This document shows, piece after piece, positions 1-62,705 of a stretch of DNA of 64,000 nucleotides; positions within the stretch are counted from its first letter, which is position 1, and each line of letters begins with the position of its first letter. Both the position numbers and the translations under genes were made by a program. Source of the stretch: Escherichia coli (GTDB lineage Bacteria; Pseudomonadota; Gammaproteobacteria; Enterobacterales; Enterobacteriaceae); the NCBI RefSeq assembly GCF_024502345.1, contig NZ_JALDNN010000001.1. The stretch is one strand, 5' to 3'. The notes under the pieces were generated by a model. That model worked only from the letters and a program-made list of their open reading frames with translations. It had not been told where the DNA came from and did not search any database.

Positions 1-281
1 GGCGTGTCTGCGGTTTTTCAACTATTCAGATACATCACTCCCATCACATTCATTCCTCCGCATCATAGGCATATAGGCTATATCACCTTGATATTTTTCT
101 TCTTCAGATAAAAACTGTTATCTATGTATACTTTTAAACCCAATCCGTGTAGAGTCTCTGCATAAGATAGTTTGCAGTTGCCACTTCAGCTTGCGCCATA
201 AACCGCCTGATTTTTGCCGCCACCTGGGTGATGCTGCCAACTTACTGATTTAGTGTATGATGGTGTTTTTGAGGTGCTCCA

Positions 282-557
282 GTGGCTTCTGTTTCTATCA
301 GCTGTCCCTCCTGTTCAGCTACTGACGGGGTGGTGCGTAACGGCAAAAGCACCGCCGGACATCAGCGCTATCTCTGCTCTCACTGCCGTAAAACATGGCA
401 ACTGCAGTTCACTTACACCGCTTCTCAACCCGGTACGCACCAGAAAATCATTGATATGGCCATGAATGGCGTTGGATGCCGGGCAACCGCCCGCATTATG
501 GGCGTTGGCCTCAACACGATTTTCCGCCATTTAAAAAACTCAGGCCGCAGTCGGTAA
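282..557 (+). CDS. insA: IS1 InsA
   Basis: 91-aa [27 protein letters not shown]..., recognised as IS1 InsA. Confidence 0.95.
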
Positions 558-979
558 CCTCGCGCATACAGCCGGGCAGTGACGTCATCGTCTGCGCGGA
601 AATGGACGAACAGTGGGGATACGTCGGGGCTAAATCGCGCCAGCGCTGGCTGTTTTACGCGTATGACAGGCTCCGGAAGACGGTTGTTGCGCACGTATTC
701 GGTGAACGCACTATGGCGACGCTGGGGCGTCTTATGAGCCTGCTGTCACCCTTTGACGTGGTGATATGGATGACGGATGGCTGGCCGCTGTATGAATCCC
801 GCCTGAAGGGAAAGCTGCACGTAATCAGCAAGCGATATACGCAGCGAATTGAGCGGCATAACCTGAATCTGAGGCAGCACCTGGCACGGCTGGGACGGAA
901 GTCGCTGTCGTTCTCAAAATCGGTGGAGCTGCATGACAAAGTCATCGGGCATTATCTGAACATAAAACACTATCAATAA
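476..979 (+). CDS. insB: IS1 InsB (expressed as InsAB' by frameshift)
   Basis: 167-aa ORF overlapping insA in the -1 frame, typical IS1 arrangement. Confidence 0.9.
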
Positions 980-994
980 GTTGGAGTCATTACC

Positions 995-1092
995 TAAGTC
1001 AGGTATAAATATAAGTGACATTGCCCAAGAATTCAAAACCTCGCGGCAAACCATTTTAAGAGCTAAAGCAAAAAATCAGACACCTGATATAT
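995..1092 (+). pseudogene. C-terminal HTH fragment of a recombinase/DNA-binding protein truncated by IS1
   Basis: Open frame running straight out of the IS1 right end: ...[31 protein letters not shown]. Resembles the C-terminal HTH of serine recombinases; no start codon of its own. Confidence 0.3.
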
Positions 1093-1191
1093 AAAAATAA
1101 TCTCGGTGTGAGATTCCTTACGTTTTCCAAGCCCCCCTTCCTAGCCTTAAATGGAAAGATACTTCTAATTATAGAATTTATATATCTTACC

Positions 1192-1359
1192 CTACGGTAG
1201 GGCTGGCCATTCAATATCCGGTGCAGTTGATGTATCAACACGGTTCAGCAACACCCGATACTTTTTCCAGGCTTCCAGCAACAAGGTTTCTTCCTCCGTT
1301 GCGATCTCCAGATCCACAGCATCCTGAAGCGGCGCTATATGCTCACTGGCTACCTGCAT
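1192..1359 (-). CDS. Hypothetical small acidic protein (55 aa), divergent from the CI-like gene
   Basis: [58 protein letters not shown]; below the 60-aa cutoff of the ORF track; sits in the cro position but shows no obvious HTH. Confidence 0.3.
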
Positions 1360-1439
1360 CAGGCTGTTTTTTGTTTCTTCCGCCTACCTGTAATACTGAT
1401 TGCGAGTTGAATGGTTTGATTTGTCATTATCAATTCCTA

Positions 1440-1537: not shown

Positions 1538-2230
1538 ATGAAAAAAGAAACTCTTGCTGATCGCTTAAACCTAGCGATGGAACAATCTGGAATGTCTCAA
1601 GGCGCTCTTGCAAAGGCGTCTGGCGTAGCTCAACCCACAATCTGGAGACTGACAAGCGGCAACGCTCGCGGCTCAACAAAAATTGTTGAAATAGCTAATG
1701 CATTGGGTGTTCGAACAGAATGGCTCTCATCAGGCATAGGCCCGATGAGAAATGACGGTCAACAATCAGGGAAGCCTGCTGTCAGCCATTCAAAATACTT
1801 CAAGATTGACGTTCTTGATATAGAAGTGAGTGCCGGGCCGGGAGTCATCAACCGTGAGTTTGTAGAAGTTCTACGCTCGGTTGAGTACTCGTTTGACGAT
1901 GCTCGTCACATGTTCGATGGTAGGAAGGCAGAAAATATCCGCATCATTAACGTACGCGGTGACAGCATGTCAGGAACGATCGAACCAGGTGATCTGCTGT
2001 TCGTTGATATCACGGTTAAATCTTTCGACGGTGATGGTATCTATGCGTTTCTGTATGACGACACCGCCCATGTAAAGCGCCTGCAAATGATGAAGGATAA
2101 GCTACTGGTTATCTCTGATAACAAGAGCTACTCACCGTGGGACCCGATCGAGAAAGACGAGATGAACCGGGTATTCATATTCGGTAAGGTTATTGGGAGC
2201 ATGCCGCAGACGTACAGAAAACACGGATAA
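1538..2230 (+). CDS. CI/LexA-type phage repressor (N-terminal XRE HTH, C-terminal S24 autopeptidase)
   Basis: 230 aa from MKKETLADRLNLAMEQSGMSQGALAKASGVAQPTIWRL (HTH) to ...NVRGDSMSGTIEPGDLLFVDI...AHVKRL (S24 Ser in GDSM and Lys in VKRL). The ORF track offers an upstream ATG at 1502, but that lies inside the promoter-like region. Confidence 0.85.
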   Translation: MKKETLADRLNLAMEQSGMSQGALAKASGVAQPTIWRLTSGNARGSTKIVEIANALGVRTEWLSSGIGPMRNDGQQSGKPAVSHSKYFKIDVLDIEVSAGPGVINREFVEVLRSVEYSFDDARHMFDGRKAENIRIINVRGDSMSGTIEPGDLLFVDITVKSFDGDGIYAFLYDDTAHVKRLQMMKDKLLVISDNKSYSPWDPIEKDEMNRVFIFGKVIGSMPQTYRKHG

Positions 2231-2312
2231 TCAGCCGCGTGTTGATGAGGCTTTTGGGTAATACGCTGAAGAAAATACCTTATAAAAAATAACATTACGG
2301 GAAAGGCAAAAA

Positions 2313-2576
2313 ATGAGTAATAAAACACTTGTTAAAAAATCAAATAACTGTGTCGATGCATACGCCGACGCGTTTGGCTACTCTTCGTTTGGTGACGGCT
2401 CTCAGCGCCTAGGTTCAATTTCTTTTTTTCATAATGTAACTGAATGGCCTGTTGATGAAAGTGACGATGTTGAGAACATAAAGTACAACATTGCAACCAT
2501 TAGAATGCCCGAAGAATTGATGCTTAAATTGGCTGACTTCATTCGCGACCAGCATGACAAAGCTAAAACAAACTAA
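2313..2576 (+). CDS. Hypothetical protein (87 aa), prophage cargo gene
   Basis: ORF with GGAAAGG ribosome-binding site 7 nt upstream; AT-rich compared with neighbours; no family recognised. Confidence 0.5.
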   Translation: MSNKTLVKKSNNCVDAYADAFGYSSFGDGSQRLGSISFFHNVTEWPVDESDDVENIKYNIATIRMPEELMLKLADFIRDQHDKAKTN

Positions 2577-2588
2577 TCGTAATTAATT

Positions 2589-3032
2589 ATGAAACACGAT
2601 TATTACGAAGCTCCAAACCTAAATGATAAAATTGCAAAGGCGGCAAAATCATTTTGTTTGCACTCCAGTGCGTCTTCCCAGCTAGCAGGTATATCTGGAA
2701 AAAGATGGGACATGCTACAATCAAGTGGTAGCAGTGGGTCTGGGAGTGATAACATGCCTGAAAAAGTTGCAAAACTGGAGTCCGATGTTGCTCATATCAA
2801 ACGAGACGTTGATGAACTTAAAACAGACGTTAAAGCTATCGACAAAAATATGATAACTATTCTTGCACGTCTGGACTCTATAAAAGAATCCTTAACAAAC
2901 AAGCCATCAAGTGATGCTGTCGATAGAAAGATTTCAGACGCAAAGCTTGCGGTATTGCTTGGTGTTCCAGCAATCATCGCTGCAGGAACAGGACTTTATA
3001 AGCTATCAATGTACTTTTTCTTTAGTGCTTAA
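2589..3032 (+). CDS. XhlA-like coiled-coil protein with C-terminal transmembrane helix
   Basis: C-terminal 92 aa MPEKVAKLESDVAHIKRDVDELKTDVKAIDKNMITILARLDSIKESL...AKLAVLLGVPAIIAAGTGLYKL: heptad-like coiled coil plus one hydrophobic helix, resembling phage hemolysin XhlA. The ATG at 2589 has no ribosome-binding site; the ATG at 2754 has GGGAG 7 nt upstream and may be the true start. Confidence 0.5.
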   Translation: MKHDYYEAPNLNDKIAKAAKSFCLHSSASSQLAGISGKRWDMLQSSGSSGSGSDNMPEKVAKLESDVAHIKRDVDELKTDVKAIDKNMITILARLDSIKESLTNKPSSDAVDRKISDAKLAVLLGVPAIIAAGTGLYKLSMYFFFSA

Positions 3033-3106
3033 GAAAATGCTCGCACCCTTGCATTAGGTAAAGCGATTTTTCATTCCCCATTACCCTCGCTCTTAACCAA
3101 TCATCT

Positions 3107-3136
3107 AAACCCGGCCACCGTGCCGGGTTTTCTTTT
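3107..3136 (+). terminator. Rho-independent terminator after the CI/cargo operon
   Basis: aaaCCCGGC-caccgt-GCCGGGttttctttt: GC stem, 6-nt loop and T-run, just downstream of the 3032 stop. Confidence 0.6.
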
Positions 3137-3261
3137 GCCCTCCCCTCATCACACACCGTTCAAAAAACCACCACGACCTCACTTCAGTTATCGCTATGCG
3201 ATGCAAGTCACAAAATTAATTCTTTTTGCTATCAAACATTTAATATCAAAACACATCAACT

Positions 3262-3308
3262 AATAGCAATAAGTATTGATATCACCAATAGCAATAGCTA
3301 TTATCACC
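3262..3308 (+). promoter_or_regulatory. Second operator set with pL-like promoter
   Basis: AATAGCAAT at 3262-3270; palindrome AATAGC-AATA-GCTATT at 3287-3302; TATCACC direct repeats at 3280-3286 and 3302-3308; TTGATA (3276-3281), 17-nt spacer, TATTAT (3299-3304) on the + strand. Confidence 0.4.
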
Positions 3309-3497
3309 ATATCGCAACAACACAACGATACGGCAACCACCTGATTCACCGTTGCGATGACCGCTTAGATCCGCAGCTTGAATTTCAGCAGGCTTCGGGG
3401 AGTGCGAGGGATGAAACGGACGCGTGAACGTCGGTGTGACCAGCTGAAATCAACTCAACATTTCATACCTTAGTCGCTTCAACGAGGCGGCTTAGTT

Positions 3498-3788
3498 ATG
3501 ACAACCGGCGGCCATCCACCGCCTGAATACGCGCAGAAGTCTTTATATGTTCAGCAGCCCAGCTTACGGGCAGGAGTTTTTATGGTTCATCAACATTACG
3601 GAACGCAGACCGTTAATCGCGGTGCGGTCATGCCAGGAATGCTGGTCAAACGCAAAGATGGTACCTGGACTGCATCAGCTAATTTACGCGGACGACTTTA
3701 TCTGCATCGCGGCATTGAGCGCACTTATACCCGTGACTTGCTCGTGGAAGTTTTTCTCGACGGACGCGGCAACGGTCTGAATCACTAA
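3498..3788 (+). CDS. Hypothetical prophage protein (96 aa)
   Basis: ORF with GAGG about 10 nt upstream; no family recognised; an internal start MVHQHYG at 3582 is also possible. Confidence 0.35.
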   Translation: MTTGGHPPPEYAQKSLYVQQPSLRAGVFMVHQHYGTQTVNRGAVMPGMLVKRKDGTWTASANLRGRLYLHRGIERTYTRDLLVEVFLDGRGNGLNH

Positions 3789-3863
3789 TCCCCTTTCCTG
3801 TTTTCCGAATCAGCCTGGCATTCCGCGGGCGATTTTTTCACAGCCATTTTCAGGAGTTCAGCC

Positions 3864-4148
3864 ATGAACGCTTATTACATTCAGGATCGTCTTGAGGCTC
3901 AGAGCTGGGCGCGTCACTACCAGCAGATCGCCCGTGAAGAGAAAGAGGCAGAACTGGCAGACGACATGGAAAAAGGCCTGCCCCAGCACCTGTTTGAATC
4001 GCTATGCATCGATCATTTGCAACGCCACGGGGCCAGCAAAAAAGCCATTAGGCGCGATCACTTTCATCTACTCCGTTACAAAGCGAGGCTGGGTATTTCC
4101 CGGCCTTTCTGTTATCAGAAATCCACTGAAAGCACAGCGGCTGGCTGA
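3864..4148 (+). CDS. Hypothetical prophage protein (94 aa)
   Basis: [31 protein letters not shown]... with AGGAG 9 nt upstream. Confidence 0.5.
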
Positions 4149-4175
4149 GAAGATAAATAATAAACGGGAGGCGGT

Positions 4176-4367
4176 ATGCACAAAGCATCTCCTGTTGAGT
4201 TAAGAACGAGTATTGAGATGGCACATAGCCTTGCTCAAATTGGAGTCAGGTTTGTGCCAATACCAGTAGAAACAGACGAAGAATTTCATACGTTAGCCAC
4301 ATCCCTTTCACAAAAGCTGGAAATGATGGTGGCGAAAGCAGAAGCAGATGAGAGAGACCAGGTATGA
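4176..4367 (+). CDS. Hypothetical prophage protein (63 aa)
   Basis: ORF MHKASPVELRTSIEMAHSLAQIGVRFVPIPVETDEEF... with GGGAGG 5 nt upstream. Confidence 0.5.
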   Translation: MHKASPVELRTSIEMAHSLAQIGVRFVPIPVETDEEFHTLATSLSQKLEMMVAKAEADERDQV

Positions 4368-4377
4368 CAACCACTGA

Positions 4378-4656
4378 ATGCATTTTTCTGGCAGCGGGCT
4401 TCATATTCTGTGTGCTTATGCTTTCCGTTTCCATGACCTCAGACACACCTGGGCAAGCTGGCTGATTCAGTCAGGCGTCCCATTATCAGTGCTTCAGGAA
4501 ATGGGCGGATGGGAGTCCATAGAAATGGTTCGTAGGTATGCTCACCTTGCGCCTAATCATTTGACAGAGCATGCGAGGAAAATAGACGACATTTTTGGTG
4601 ATAATGTCCCAAATATGTCCCACTCTGGAATTATGGAGGATATAAAGAAGGCGTAA
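4378..4656 (+). pseudogene. Tyrosine integrase, C-terminal fragment only
   Basis: ...[46 protein letters not shown]... carries the integrase catalytic box (HxLRHT, trailing Y) but only ~80 aa remain; ends 16 bp from the 3' end of argU, the expected attachment site. Confidence 0.8.
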
Positions 4657-4671
4657 CTGATTGAATTGTAA

Positions 4672-4748
4672 TGGCGCGCCCTGCAGGATTCGAACCTGCG
4701 GCCCACGACTTAGAAGGTCGTTGCTCTATCCAACTGAGCTAAGGGCGC
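4672..4748 (-). tRNA. argU: tRNA-Arg (anticodon UCU)
   Basis: Reverse complement reads GCGCCCTTAGCTCAGTTGGATAGAGCAACGACCTTCTAAGTCGTGGGCCGCAGGTTCGAATCCTGCAGGGCGCGCCA (77 nt, anticodon TCT, CCA end). Confidence 0.95.
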
Positions 4749-4990
4749 GTTGATACCGCAATGCGGTGTAATCGCGTGAATTATACGGTCAACCCTTGCT
4801 GAGTCAATGGCTTTTGATCTGGTTGCTGAACAAGTGAACGACCGCGTCTGATTTTCTGATTTATTTCGCTATAGCGGCAAACAAACACACACCGCTGCGC
4901 GTCTGAATCAAGAAAACCCGTATTTTCATGTATCAAAGTACAATTTACCGCCCTAACGGAAAATTGTCCGCTCCTATGAGACTGGTAACT

Positions 4991-5623
4991 ATGAAACCAA
5001 CGTCGGTGATCATTATGGATACTCATCCTATCATCAGAATGTCTATTGAAGTTCTGTTGCAAAAAAACAGTGAATTGCAGATTGTCCTGAAAACGGATGA
5101 TTACCGCATAACCATCGATTATCTCCGAACCCGTCCTGTTGATTTAATCATTATGGATATAGACTTGCCCGGAACAGACGGTTTTACCTTCCTGAAAAGG
5201 ATCAAACAAATCCAGAGCACAGTGAAAGTGTTATTTTTATCATCGAAATCAGAATGCTTTTATGCTGGCAGAGCGATACAAGCTGGTGCTAACGGTTTTG
5301 TCAGTAAATGCAATGATCAGAATAATATTTTTCATGCCGTTCAGATGATCCTCTCCGGATACACGTTTTTTCCCAGCGAAACGCTTAACTATATAAAAAG
5401 CAATAAATGTAGTACGAATAGTTCAACGGTCACTGTGCTATCTAATCGTGAAGTGACCATATTACGTTATCTGGTTAGCGGATTATCTAATAAAGAAATT
5501 GCCGATAAGTTATTACTTAGCAATAAAACAGTTAGTGCGCATAAATCTAATATTTATGGCAAGCTAGGTTTGCATTCAATTGTAGAGCTTATCGACTACG
5601 CCAAATTATACGAATTAATATAA
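4991..5623 (+). CDS. fimZ: Fimbrial response regulator FimZ (LuxR-type)
   Basis: 210 aa from MKPTSVIIMDTHPIIRMSIEVLL...; receiver domain plus C-terminal LuxR HTH. The ORF track's upstream start at 4928 is probably an overcall. Confidence 0.9.
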   Translation: MKPTSVIIMDTHPIIRMSIEVLLQKNSELQIVLKTDDYRITIDYLRTRPVDLIIMDIDLPGTDGFTFLKRIKQIQSTVKVLFLSSKSECFYAGRAIQAGANGFVSKCNDQNNIFHAVQMILSGYTFFPSETLNYIKSNKCSTNSSTVTVLSNREVTILRYLVSGLSNKEIADKLLLSNKTVSAHKSNIYGKLGLHSIVELIDYAKLYELI

Positions 5624-5720
5624 TATTAATTATAATTGATCATAAATATCGCATCCGCTTTCGCCGGTGATGCTGCCAACTTACTGATTTAGTGTATGAT
5701 GGTGTTTTTGAGGTGCTCCA

Positions 5721-5996
5721 GTGGCTTCTGTTTCTATCAGCTGTCCCTCCTGTTCAGCTACTGACGGGGTGGTGCGTAACGGCAAAAGCACCGCCGGACA
5801 TCAGCGCTATCTCTGCTCTCACTGCCGTAAAACATGGCAACTGCAGTTCACTTACACCGCTTCTCAACCCGGTACGCACCAGAAAATCATTGATATGGCC
5901 ATGAATGGCGTTGGATGCCGGGCAACCGCCCGCATTATGGGCGTTGGCCTCAACACGATTTTCCGCCATTTAAAAAACTCAGGCCGCAGTCGGTAA
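5721..5996 (+). CDS. insA: IS1 InsA
   Basis: Protein identical to copy 1 InsA. Confidence 0.95.
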
Positions 5997-6418
5997 CCTC
6001 GCGCATACAGCCGGGCAGTGACGTCATCGTCTGCGCGGAAATGGACGAACAGTGGGGATACGTCGGGGCTAAATCGCGCCAGCGCTGGCTGTTTTACGCG
6101 TATGACAGGCTCCGGAAGACGGTTGTTGCGCACGTATTCGGTGAACGCACTATGGCGACGCTGGGGCGTCTTATGAGCCTGCTGTCACCCTTTGACGTGG
6201 TGATATGGATGACGGATGGCTGGCCGCTGTATGAATCCCGCCTGAAGGGAAAGCTGCACGTAATCAGCAAGCGATATACGCAGCGAATTGAGCGGCATAA
6301 CCTGAATCTGAGGCAGCACCTGGCACGGCTGGGACGGAAGTCGCTGTCGTTCTCAAAATCGGTGGAGCTGCATGACAAAGTCATCGGGCATTATCTGAAC
6401 ATAAAACACTATCAATAA
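5915..6418 (+). CDS. insB: IS1 InsB
   Basis: Protein identical to copy 1 InsB. Confidence 0.9.
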
Positions 6419-6600
6419 GTTGGAGTCATTACCCGAAAAATGAAGCTTTCAATCTCAGCGACCTCAGCGACGGTGCGCCTCACCTTCGCAAGAGGTCGCT
6501 TCACGCGATAAATCTGAAACGAAACCTGACAGCGTGCCCCGCTTCTGACAAAATAGGCGCATCCCCTTCGACCTACGTAACAGATGGAATCCTCTCTCTG

Positions 6601-21025: not shown

Positions 21026-21067
21026 GTCATACCACTCGCCTGATTATTTTTAGCTATGTTGGATTTT

Positions 21068-21094
21068 GCCACGGTTTATACCGTGGCTTTTTTT
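21068..21094 (+). terminator. Rho-independent terminator after allE
   Basis: GCCACGG-tttata-CCGTGGC followed by TTTTTTT. Confidence 0.6.
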
Positions 21095-21110
21095 GTAGTA
21101 AATTCAGGTA

Positions 21111-56059: not shown

Positions 56060-56854
56060 ATGGATCTGTTGTACCGGGTAAAAACGCTTTGGGCCGCGCT
56101 GCGCGGTAATCATTACACCTGGCCTGCCATCGATATCACCCTTCCCGGCAATCGCCATTTTCATCTGATTGGCAGTATTCATATGGGTAGCCACGATATG
56201 GCTCCCCTGCCCACCCGTTTGCTCAAAAAGCTCAAAAACGCCGATGCGCTGATCGTCGAGGCTGATGTTTCCACCAGCGATACGCCTTTTGCTAATTTGC
56301 CTGCCTGCGAGGCGCTGGAAGAGCGCATTAGCGAGGAGCAACTCCAAAACCTGCAGCATATTAGCCAGGAGATGGGCATTTCTCCCTCACTCTTTTCTAC
56401 CCAACCGCTGTGGCAAATCGCGATGGTTCTTCAGGCGACGCAGGCGCAAAAACTGGGGCTGCGGGCAGAATACGGTATCGATTACCAGCTATTGCAGGCG
56501 GCGAAGCAACAACATAAACCCGTGATTGAACTGGAAGGGGCTGAAAACCAGATTGCCATGTTGCTCCAGCTCCCTGACAAAGGACTGGCGCTGCTGGACG
56601 ATACGCTGACCCACTGGCATACCAACGCACGGTTGCTGCAACAAATGATGAGCTGGTGGCTGAATGCACCTCCGCAAAATAATGATATAACGCTGCCCAA
56701 TACGTTCAGTCAGTCGCTGTACGATGTGCTGATGCATCAGCGAAATCTCGCCTGGCGGGATAAACTGTATGCTATGCAGCCAGGGCACTATGTGGTCGCG
56801 GTCGGTGCACTACACCTGTATGGAGAAGGGAATTTGCCGCAAATGTTGCGCTAA
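56060..56854 (+). CDS. ybaP: TraB-family protein
   Basis: 264 aa, MDLLYRVKTLWAALRGNHYTWPAIDITLPGNRHFHLIGSIHMG... Confidence 0.85.
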   Translation: MDLLYRVKTLWAALRGNHYTWPAIDITLPGNRHFHLIGSIHMGSHDMAPLPTRLLKKLKNADALIVEADVSTSDTPFANLPACEALEERISEEQLQNLQHISQEMGISPSLFSTQPLWQIAMVLQATQAQKLGLRAEYGIDYQLLQAAKQQHKPVIELEGAENQIAMLLQLPDKGLALLDDTLTHWHTNARLLQQMMSWWLNAPPQNNDITLPNTFSQSLYDVLMHQRNLAWRDKLYAMQPGHYVVAVGALHLYGEGNLPQMLR

Positions 56855-57042
56855 AAAAATGGCCAATATCGCTATTGGCCCGTCAAAGAGGAATTTCATT
56901 TTTTTATTATTATGCCGTCACTTTAAGCGACGGTGTAACTCGATTGTCGCTCAATCTCACCATCCTGCCAATACTCTTAGGCAAGATGACTCTTTTTTTT
57001 GGACCGCCATCAGGCGTATGCTTGCTTCGTTTTTTTGTTTAA

Positions 57043-62584: not shown

Positions 62585-62705
62585 GTTGCCGGATGTAAAA
62601 TATGAAAAATATGTAGGCATGATAAGACGCGCCAGCGTCGCATCAGGCATCGAGAGCCAAATGCCAGATGCGGCGTGAACGCCTTATCTGGCCTACGAAC
62701 CGACG
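62585..62705. repeat. REP element cluster
   Basis: GATAAGACGCGCCAGCGTCGCATCAGGC and GCCAGATGCGGCGTGAACGCCTTATCTGGCCTAC units between convergent ybaL and gsk. Confidence 0.7.

Follow-up and report, generated by a model that had tools for sequence, protein, structure and literature searches.

Among described elements, the closest to the locus analysed here is DLP12, the prophage that Escherichia coli K-12 carries at the 3' end of the tRNA gene argU and whose att repeat is 47 bp long (PMC6379469). Phage epsilon34 has an argU attP of 43 bp (PMC2629481), and both lengths agree with the attachment core reported below. In K-12, DLP12 with its intact intD excises in fewer than 1 per 100,000 cells, and for two further elements of that strain that are without an active integrase, Qin (inactive intQ) and CP4-44 (no integrase), excision was not detected (PMC3105296). 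These two are, like the locus described here, remnants without a working integrase, but they derive from different phages, occupy different sites and belong to different integrase families. IntD is also found in free-living phages: Turner (PP925837), 2G7b, ev243 and PhiR68_2 encode an Int that is 100% identical over 387 aa to our reference, the intact IntD of E. coli STEC384. Unlike the remnant, Turner, 2G7b and ev243 are complete viable genomes of 45-48 kb in which int is intact and one molecule holds both att arms.

Here we analyse a 64-kb stretch of E. coli DNA (hereafter the window), which matches E. coli chromosomes in the folD-cysS-fimZ-argU region. It very probably contains the int-proximal end of a DLP12-type lambdoid prophage that sits at the 3' end of argU and has been eroded by deletions, its integrase gene reduced to a dead stump of 77 codons.

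Results

A DLP12-type prophage at argU

The prophage is integrated at the 3' end of argU in the manner of DLP12, with a tRNA segment supplied by the phage. It shares with DLP12 (intD, b0537) the site and the 47-bp att core (PMC6379469), the integrase family, the orientation of int toward the tRNA gene, the lambdoid gene order and the neighbouring genes (fimZ, and ybcY-like, ompT and envY at the far end), and positions 4423-4800 of the window match sampled K-12-derived strains at 99.7-100%. Whereas K-12 keeps a full-length intD, the window has int codons 311-387 only and the xis-like gene is gone. Compared with the DLP12 gene set, the remnant retains a cI-like repressor, kil, gam' and DUF1382 but, within the window (the far end beyond IS1 lies outside it), shows no replication, nin, Q or lysis genes and nearly no structural genes.

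A fuller relative is found in E. coli STEC384, where a nearly complete lambdoid prophage lies at argU. Its early-left genes are ordered repressor, two small ORFs, kil, gam, bet, exo, DUF1317, DUF1382, a hypothetical gene, a TraR/DksA-like gene, DUF4222, a partial HTH gene, intD and tRNA-Arg, with the structural genes beyond, running toward ompT. The window follows the same lambdoid order toward int and att and is colinear with the two STEC384 loci used for comparison (L004 and L009) save for three deletions. By blastn, window positions 1674-4050 correspond to L004 896-3272, 4049-4427 to L004 4875-5253 and 4422-5665 to L004 7256-8499. The three gaps are clean, with 1,604 and 2,008 bp missing relative to STEC384 and 2,814 bp relative to L012, a contig of the same lineage as the window.

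Only the C-terminal end of the integrase remains

The initial annotation of this DNA had proposed that nothing but the catalytic tail of a tyrosine integrase, about 80 codons, was left, and our searches bear this out. The open reading frame at 4378-4656 (plus strand, 92 aa) matches the Pfam family Phage_integrase (PF00589) with 62.6 bits, against a cut-off of 27.1 bits, and the match covers profile positions 125-171 of 172. When the intact 387-aa IntD was used as a tblastn query, residues 311-387 aligned at 4423-4653 on the plus strand with 100% identity (E 9e-48), leaving 77 integrase codons that begin with F311, and residues 1-310 had no credible match in any frame of the 64 kb.

Alignment of IntD to the HP1 integrase (PDB 1AIH), whose catalytic residue roles we take to be established knowledge of the family, places Arg-I at R215, the HxxR motif at H314/R317, the tryptophan at W340 and the nucleophile at Y349. 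Four of the six catalytic positions (H314, R317, W340 and Tyr349) are thereby retained in the stump; Arg215 and the beta-hairpin Lys are absent, so that the catalytic set is incomplete, and neither the arm-binding nor the core-binding N-terminal domain was detected by tblastn in any frame of the window. Because two of the six catalytic residues (Arg-I and the Lys) and both DNA-binding domains are missing, the stump cannot act as a recombinase. Judged by its residues, the feature is a gene fragment (pseudogene) of the IntD (DLP12) subgroup of PF00589 and not a functional member of it, and the best reading of the stump is that of a dead gene fragment. The int tail itself is 100% identical across very many E. 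coli. The 90% cluster to which the stump protein belongs has 124 members, and those with names are nearly all 'site-specific integrase, partial' from E. coli.

The truncation is a clean deletion

The initial annotation had put the fusion of this tail to unrelated sequence at about 4370-4420, directly after the stop of a 63-aa ORF. The junction is real, but it lies at 4421-4424, which is 54-57 bp past that stop: a three-way alignment, blastn offsets and mismatch lists resolve it into a left-parent C at 4421, a shared TT at 4422-4423 and a right-parent T at 4424. Mapping of the breakpoint against an intact argU-associated integrase, the check originally proposed, gave a clean deletion, and the blastn alignment offsets put the missing DNA at 2,008 bp relative to STEC384 (L004). 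This segment comprises the hypothetical gene, the TraR/DksA-like gene, DUF4222, the HTH gene and int codons 1-310; the deleted HTH frame lies just upstream of int and matches Pfam HTH_17, with an excisionase-type fold. By tblastn, bet, exo, TraR and DUF4222 are also absent from the 64 kb as a whole.

The parental sequences at the junction, GCTTGCCG and GATTTCCG, form an imperfect 8-bp match with a microhomology of 2 bp, which suggests that the deletion arose by illegitimate recombination at this microhomology. Both the size of the deletion and the microhomology are to be read relative to proxies, since the exact parental prophage differs from the references; the left flank, for instance, is 96% identical to L004 and 99.5% identical to L001. 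An IS-mediated deletion was considered as well and rejected: the IS1 copies of the region sit at 227-994 and 5666-6433, and no IS sequence is present at 4421-4424 or at the gam/DUF1317 junction described below.

Could the integrase instead be full length, and its truncation a product of a sequencing frameshift or an assembly collapse? We give this almost no credence. A frameshift would leave the N-terminal part readable in another frame, as had been pointed out when the deletion was first suggested, and no full integrase can be recovered in this way; residues 1-310 are unmatched in all frames of the 64 kb, and the deletion is a true one. An assembly error is opposed by the sequence before the junction, which has its homologue downstream of DUF1382 in intact relatives, and by the independent assembly of the same junction elsewhere. 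The exact 51-mer that spans it is found in contigs of 10 independent samples (L005-L008 and L011-L016), and these junction-bearing metagenome contigs include an NCBI E. coli draft genome (GCA_001484475.1); the junction is therefore not an assembly artefact. The truncation is accordingly treated below as a deletion.

The junction creates a chimeric open reading frame

The fusion had been described as being in frame. The frame is indeed open across the junction and continues upstream by 15 codons to an ATG at 4378, so that a predicted ORF of 15 upstream phage codons, int codons 311-387 and a stop extends over 4378-4656 on the plus strand; 'in frame' holds in this sense only and says nothing about expression. 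The first 15 residues are the start of a 93-aa frame found in phage Turner and in L001, L002 and L004. The same ATG is annotated as its start in phage Turner, and RefSeq uses a later ATG in STEC384 (L004). Direct reading of the sequence revealed no Shine-Dalgarno at a usable distance from the ATG at 4378.

If the 92-codon chimera were expressed, it would carry the Tyr nucleophile together with the C-terminal tail and might interfere, in a dominant-negative or exclusion-like manner, with the Int of incoming IntD-type phages. Its frame starts from an ATG that also opens the 93-codon frame of intact phages, phages with an identical Int are in circulation and would be possible targets, and the ORF is unchanged in L006 in spite of nine differences just upstream. 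Against this stand the missing Shine-Dalgarno, the later start that RefSeq gives the upstream 93-codon gene in L004, and the stumps of other lengths with other upstream partners that other strains carry. The identity in L006 carries little weight for selection on the ORF, an idea that we rejected: the nine differences all lie to its left, in a mosaic DUF1317/DUF1382 segment, and the int tail is identical in very many E. coli anyway, so that the conservation of the chimera reflects recency or recombination rather than selection. We therefore regard expression with interference as most improbable, and as no more probable the fuller version in which a translated chimera poisons the integrase tetramers of incoming phages with identical IntD and lets the remnant act against lysogeny, or as an exclusion factor, at its own att site. 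The preferred reading remains that of a dead gene fragment.

A second small frame crosses the same junction. A 27-codon hydrophobic ORF (window 4364-4465, plus strand; L004 5190-5273; L019, the phage Turner locus, 1364-1447) overlaps the DUF1382 stop by ATGA and is conserved in intact relatives including phage Turner, where it is unannotated. In the window its last 7 codons are lost to the int deletion, and 13 out-of-frame codons follow instead.

The attachment site and argU are intact

The tRNA gene, argU for tRNA-Arg(UCU), is intact at 4672-4748 on the minus strand (ARAGORN; Rfam tRNA, 72.1 bits), is 100% identical to many E. coli genomes and is the only tRNA gene that ARAGORN finds in the window. 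A promoter-like site upstream of it (TTGACT, a 16-nt spacer and TATAAT at 4780-4807, minus strand), found by consensus scan, agrees with the consensus at 11 of 12 positions and is to be read as a consensus match only. Between the int stop (4656) and the 3' end of the tRNA (4672) lies a spacer of 15 nt, to which the previously reported distance of 16 bp corresponds when counted as an offset.

That the attachment site is preserved, a further point of the initial annotation, was confirmed by three-way alignment. The att core, AATGGCGCGCCCTGCAGGATTCGAACCTGCGGCCCACGACTTAGAAG, extends over 4670-4716 and is made up of 2 bp past the tRNA end and the 3' 45 nt of argU; its 47 bp are intact and identical to the attP core of phage Turner. 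In the stretch aligned, window positions 4600-4716, the int tail, spacer and core agree base for base with Turner, which also shares the upstream module of DUF1317, DUF1382 and the 93-codon frame. From the int tail up to and including 4716 the window is thus the same as Turner attP; past that position it departs from the phage and enters the 5' part of argU. Conversely, the far att of the DLP12-type prophage in E. coli RM10466 (L010 1664-1710) has exactly the sequence of 4670-4716 in common with the window and then continues as the other arm of the phage, a structure that fits the Campbell model. For about 47% of complete E. coli genomes, the match to the window ends precisely at 4670. Everything past nucleotide 32 of the tRNA, that is, the 3' 45 nt of argU, is phage-derived, and since the phage supplies this part of the tRNA gene, the int deletion has left the att core and argU untouched. 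At the attP core of phage Turner (L019 3680-3763) the depositors annotated a 'tRNA-Pro'; by its position it is made up of the 47-bp core derived from argU and of phage sequence, so that a genuine tRNA gene is unlikely here.

A search for a direct repeat of the tRNA 3' end, proposed earlier as a means to locate the other att site, failed within the 64 kb but succeeded in a relative. No second copy was found in the window, either with a 33-mer at up to 3 mismatches or by blastn-short with 120 bp, which returned only chance matches of 11-15 bp; nor was a repeat present in the 49.9-kb prophage locus of STEC384 (L009), which stops just short of the envY-ompT spacer. In RM10466 the 47-bp partner is found in the envY-ompT spacer, at a distance of 4.3 kb leftward from the segment corresponding to window positions 1-226. 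The partner of the site described here would accordingly be expected about 4.3 kb before the window begins, and thus outside our view; contigs of the same lineage all end at the IS1 copy.

The retention of the stump next to argU raised the question of whether it could be kept by selection, because the opposite strand carries phage-supplied termination or 3' processing signals of argU, or because it contains the P' arm, without which the site would no longer be usable. Transcription of argU does run toward the int tail, argU past nucleotide 32 is entirely phage-derived, and every truncated int allele that we saw keeps at least about 210 bp beside the tRNA gene. A scan of the minus strand from 4400 to 4672 revealed no terminator-like site, however, and the 116 nt that follow the tRNA downstream fold no better than shuffled sequence (z = -0.6), so that an argU terminator in the stump was rejected as unsupported. 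In addition, the genomes that diverge at the edge of the att core (about 47% of complete E. coli genomes, as above) keep argU nevertheless, and the length retained is equally explained by deletions having to end before the tRNA gene. Selection for such signals is in our judgement very unlikely. Instead, the stump may survive because any deletion that reached argU would harm a tRNA gene that the cell needs, a suggestion that draws on the geometry of the locus only.

The rest of the remnant is eroded as well

Upstream of the integrase, several genes of the prophage are still intact. A cI-like repressor with HTH and S24 LexA-like peptidase domains occupies 1538-2230 on the plus strand (Pfam Peptidase_S24, 1.5e-18, and HTH_3); gene calls in L005 and L012-L018 give it 230 aa. 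It is followed on the same strand by two small prophage ORFs of 87 and 147 aa (2313-3032), taken from the ORF list and colinear with hypothetical genes at L004 1534-2253, and by a gene for a Kil-type cell-division inhibitor (3498-3788). The last assignment comes from a precomputed Pfam KilR match to the identical gene of L005 and from L004, where the gene is annotated 'phage encoded cell division inhibitor'; our own Pfam search of the window gave no match for it. The DUF1382 gene, 63 aa at 4176-4367 (plus strand), matches its Pfam family over positions 1-60 of 60 (E 7.7e-31).

Between kil and DUF1382 lies a truncated gam (gam', 3864-4148, plus strand), which matches Pfam Gam over positions 1-73 of 98. 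By blastn and alignment against L004, it is cut by the deletion of 1,604 bp, which took the 3' end of gam, bet, exo and the 5' end of DUF1317 and left a junction at 4049-4050 with a shared TA. The third deletion junction, between tfa' and the immunity region, is at 1384-1388 with an overlap of 5 bp. Here tfa' is the 3' fragment of a tail-fibre assembly gene (1192-1388, minus strand; Pfam Caudo_TAP, positions 76-130 of 131, E 1.6e-26), and L012 and L013 hold 2,814 bp more, namely the rest of tfa, stf', O, ydaT and ydaS. In these two contigs (519-3327 of L012) and in L017 and L018, all of the same lineage, the additional 2.8 kb has an stf fragment already fused to the replication gene O, along with ydaT and a cro-like ydaS, and the four seem to show the same decay series at an earlier stage.

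The tfa' region also gave a full-length match to the Rfam sRNA family 'IS009' at 1226-1426 on the minus strand (177.7 bits; gathering score 117). We did not accept it as an sRNA: the matched sequence is the coding remnant of the 3' end of tfa, the first 35 or so model positions align poorly, including a stretch of 25 positions that is not shown, and what the family captures appears to be conserved coding sequence of prophage tfa. Elsewhere in the window, in its chromosomal part, gathering-level Rfam matches were obtained to the enterobacterial sRNAs STnc480 (21032-21098), sroB (56853-56936) and naRNA4 (CssrE; 62616-62693), all on the minus strand.

Beyond tfa', a fragment of a Pin-type serine invertase retains its C-terminal 30 codons and stop (1002-1094, plus strand; Pfam HTH_7, the resolvase HTH, E 4.8e-6), and its DNA has E. 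coli matches annotated 'recombinase family protein' beside tfaQ. The invertase gene is cut by an IS1 copy at 227-994 (plus strand, with InsA/InsB ORFs), which parts the remnant from a far-end segment at 1-226; this segment agrees at 100% identity with L010 6001-6226, which belongs to the far-end region of a DLP12-type prophage. The chromosomal gene that borders argU on its bacterial side, fimZ (4991-5623, plus strand; Pfam Response_reg and GerE; annotated fimZ in L001-L004), is followed by a second IS1 at 5666-6433 (plus strand), recognized by self-blast, that stands in place of the sfm fimbrial operon; L011 and L004 (STEC384) carry about 5.9 kb of sfm genes at this position. The two IS1 copies are 100% identical, in direct orientation and about 4.7 kb apart, and bracket the remnant together with argU and fimZ. 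No 9-bp target duplication is present at either copy, which is consistent with IS1-adjacent deletions.

The exact junction recurs in 10 samples, and truncated integrases at argU are common

The int junction was seen in the 10 samples mentioned above but in not one of 5,426 complete E. coli genomes, and a 39-mer across it has no match among GTDB species-representative genomes. One of the contigs that carry it, L006, has exo and DUF1317 intact and differs from the window at nine positions, all within 4066-4299. Lineages with different upstream sequence thus have the int deletion in common, and since L006 has the int junction yet keeps these genes, the int deletion probably came before the gam-exo deletion.

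Similar stumps, abutting argU and lacking the N-terminus, occur in other strains, where they are annotated 'site-specific integrase, incomplete, missing N-terminus', and each differs from the window in its breakpoint and upstream partner: 561 bp after DUF4222' in E. coli Z1323HEC0422, 219 bp after a hypothetical gene in TUM12355 and 333 bp after bet' in PS3Tanimalfeces2. Further int breakpoints at argU were seen in a spread sample of 60 genomes. Among the 5,426 complete genomes, at least 80% of a query of intD plus the tRNA gene is present in 1,642, and at least 80% of a query of int tail plus tRNA gene in 2,877, a gap that is due in part to mosaic integrases and not to truncation. A truncated int beside argU is thus ordinary prophage decay of a known kind, found in many E. 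coli.

Discussion

The gene order and the junctions described above suggest a simple history for this locus. A lambdoid prophage of the DLP12 type would have integrated at the 3' end of argU, bringing with it the 3' 45 nt of the tRNA gene. A single deletion, probably by illegitimate recombination at a microhomology of 2 bp, then removed 2,008 bp, and with them three small genes of the early-left region, the excisionase-like HTH gene and int codons 1-310. Deprived of int and xis, the remnant would have been locked in and passed on as part of the chromosome, while two further deletions at microhomologies eroded the prophage and two IS1 copies came to bracket it.

Excision of a prophage requires Int, an Xis-like factor and two att sites. 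Because int codons 1-310 and the HTH_17 xis-like frame both lie within the missing 2,008 bp, the remnant has neither an Int nor a directionality factor of its own, and self-directed excision should be impossible, in agreement with the K-12 data cited above. The initial annotation had concluded that the element can no longer excise and is a fixed island, and the loss of both genes supports it in the sense that the remnant would be unable to leave by itself and would be inherited as chromosome; 'fixed' is here a statement about the absence of int and xis and about nothing else. In principle, Int and Xis supplied in trans by phages with an identical Int could allow excision. By the same token, the intact 47-bp core leaves the site open as a target for phages with the same integrase.

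The frequency with which int stumps are met at argU may have a geometric basis. As only 15 nt separate the int stop from a tRNA gene whose integrity has to be kept, deletions that enter from the phage side would usually end inside int.

The exact junction reported here (window 4400-4450) provides a clean lineage marker, present in contigs of 10 samples and in none of the 5,426 complete genomes, and when it is combined with the other two deletion junctions and the two IS1 sites, the steps by which the prophage decayed can be partly ordered. Beyond annotation the finding matters little. For annotation, the feature should be labelled an intD pseudogene fragment in a degraded DLP12-type prophage, and should be read neither as an integrase nor as the sign of a mobile island.
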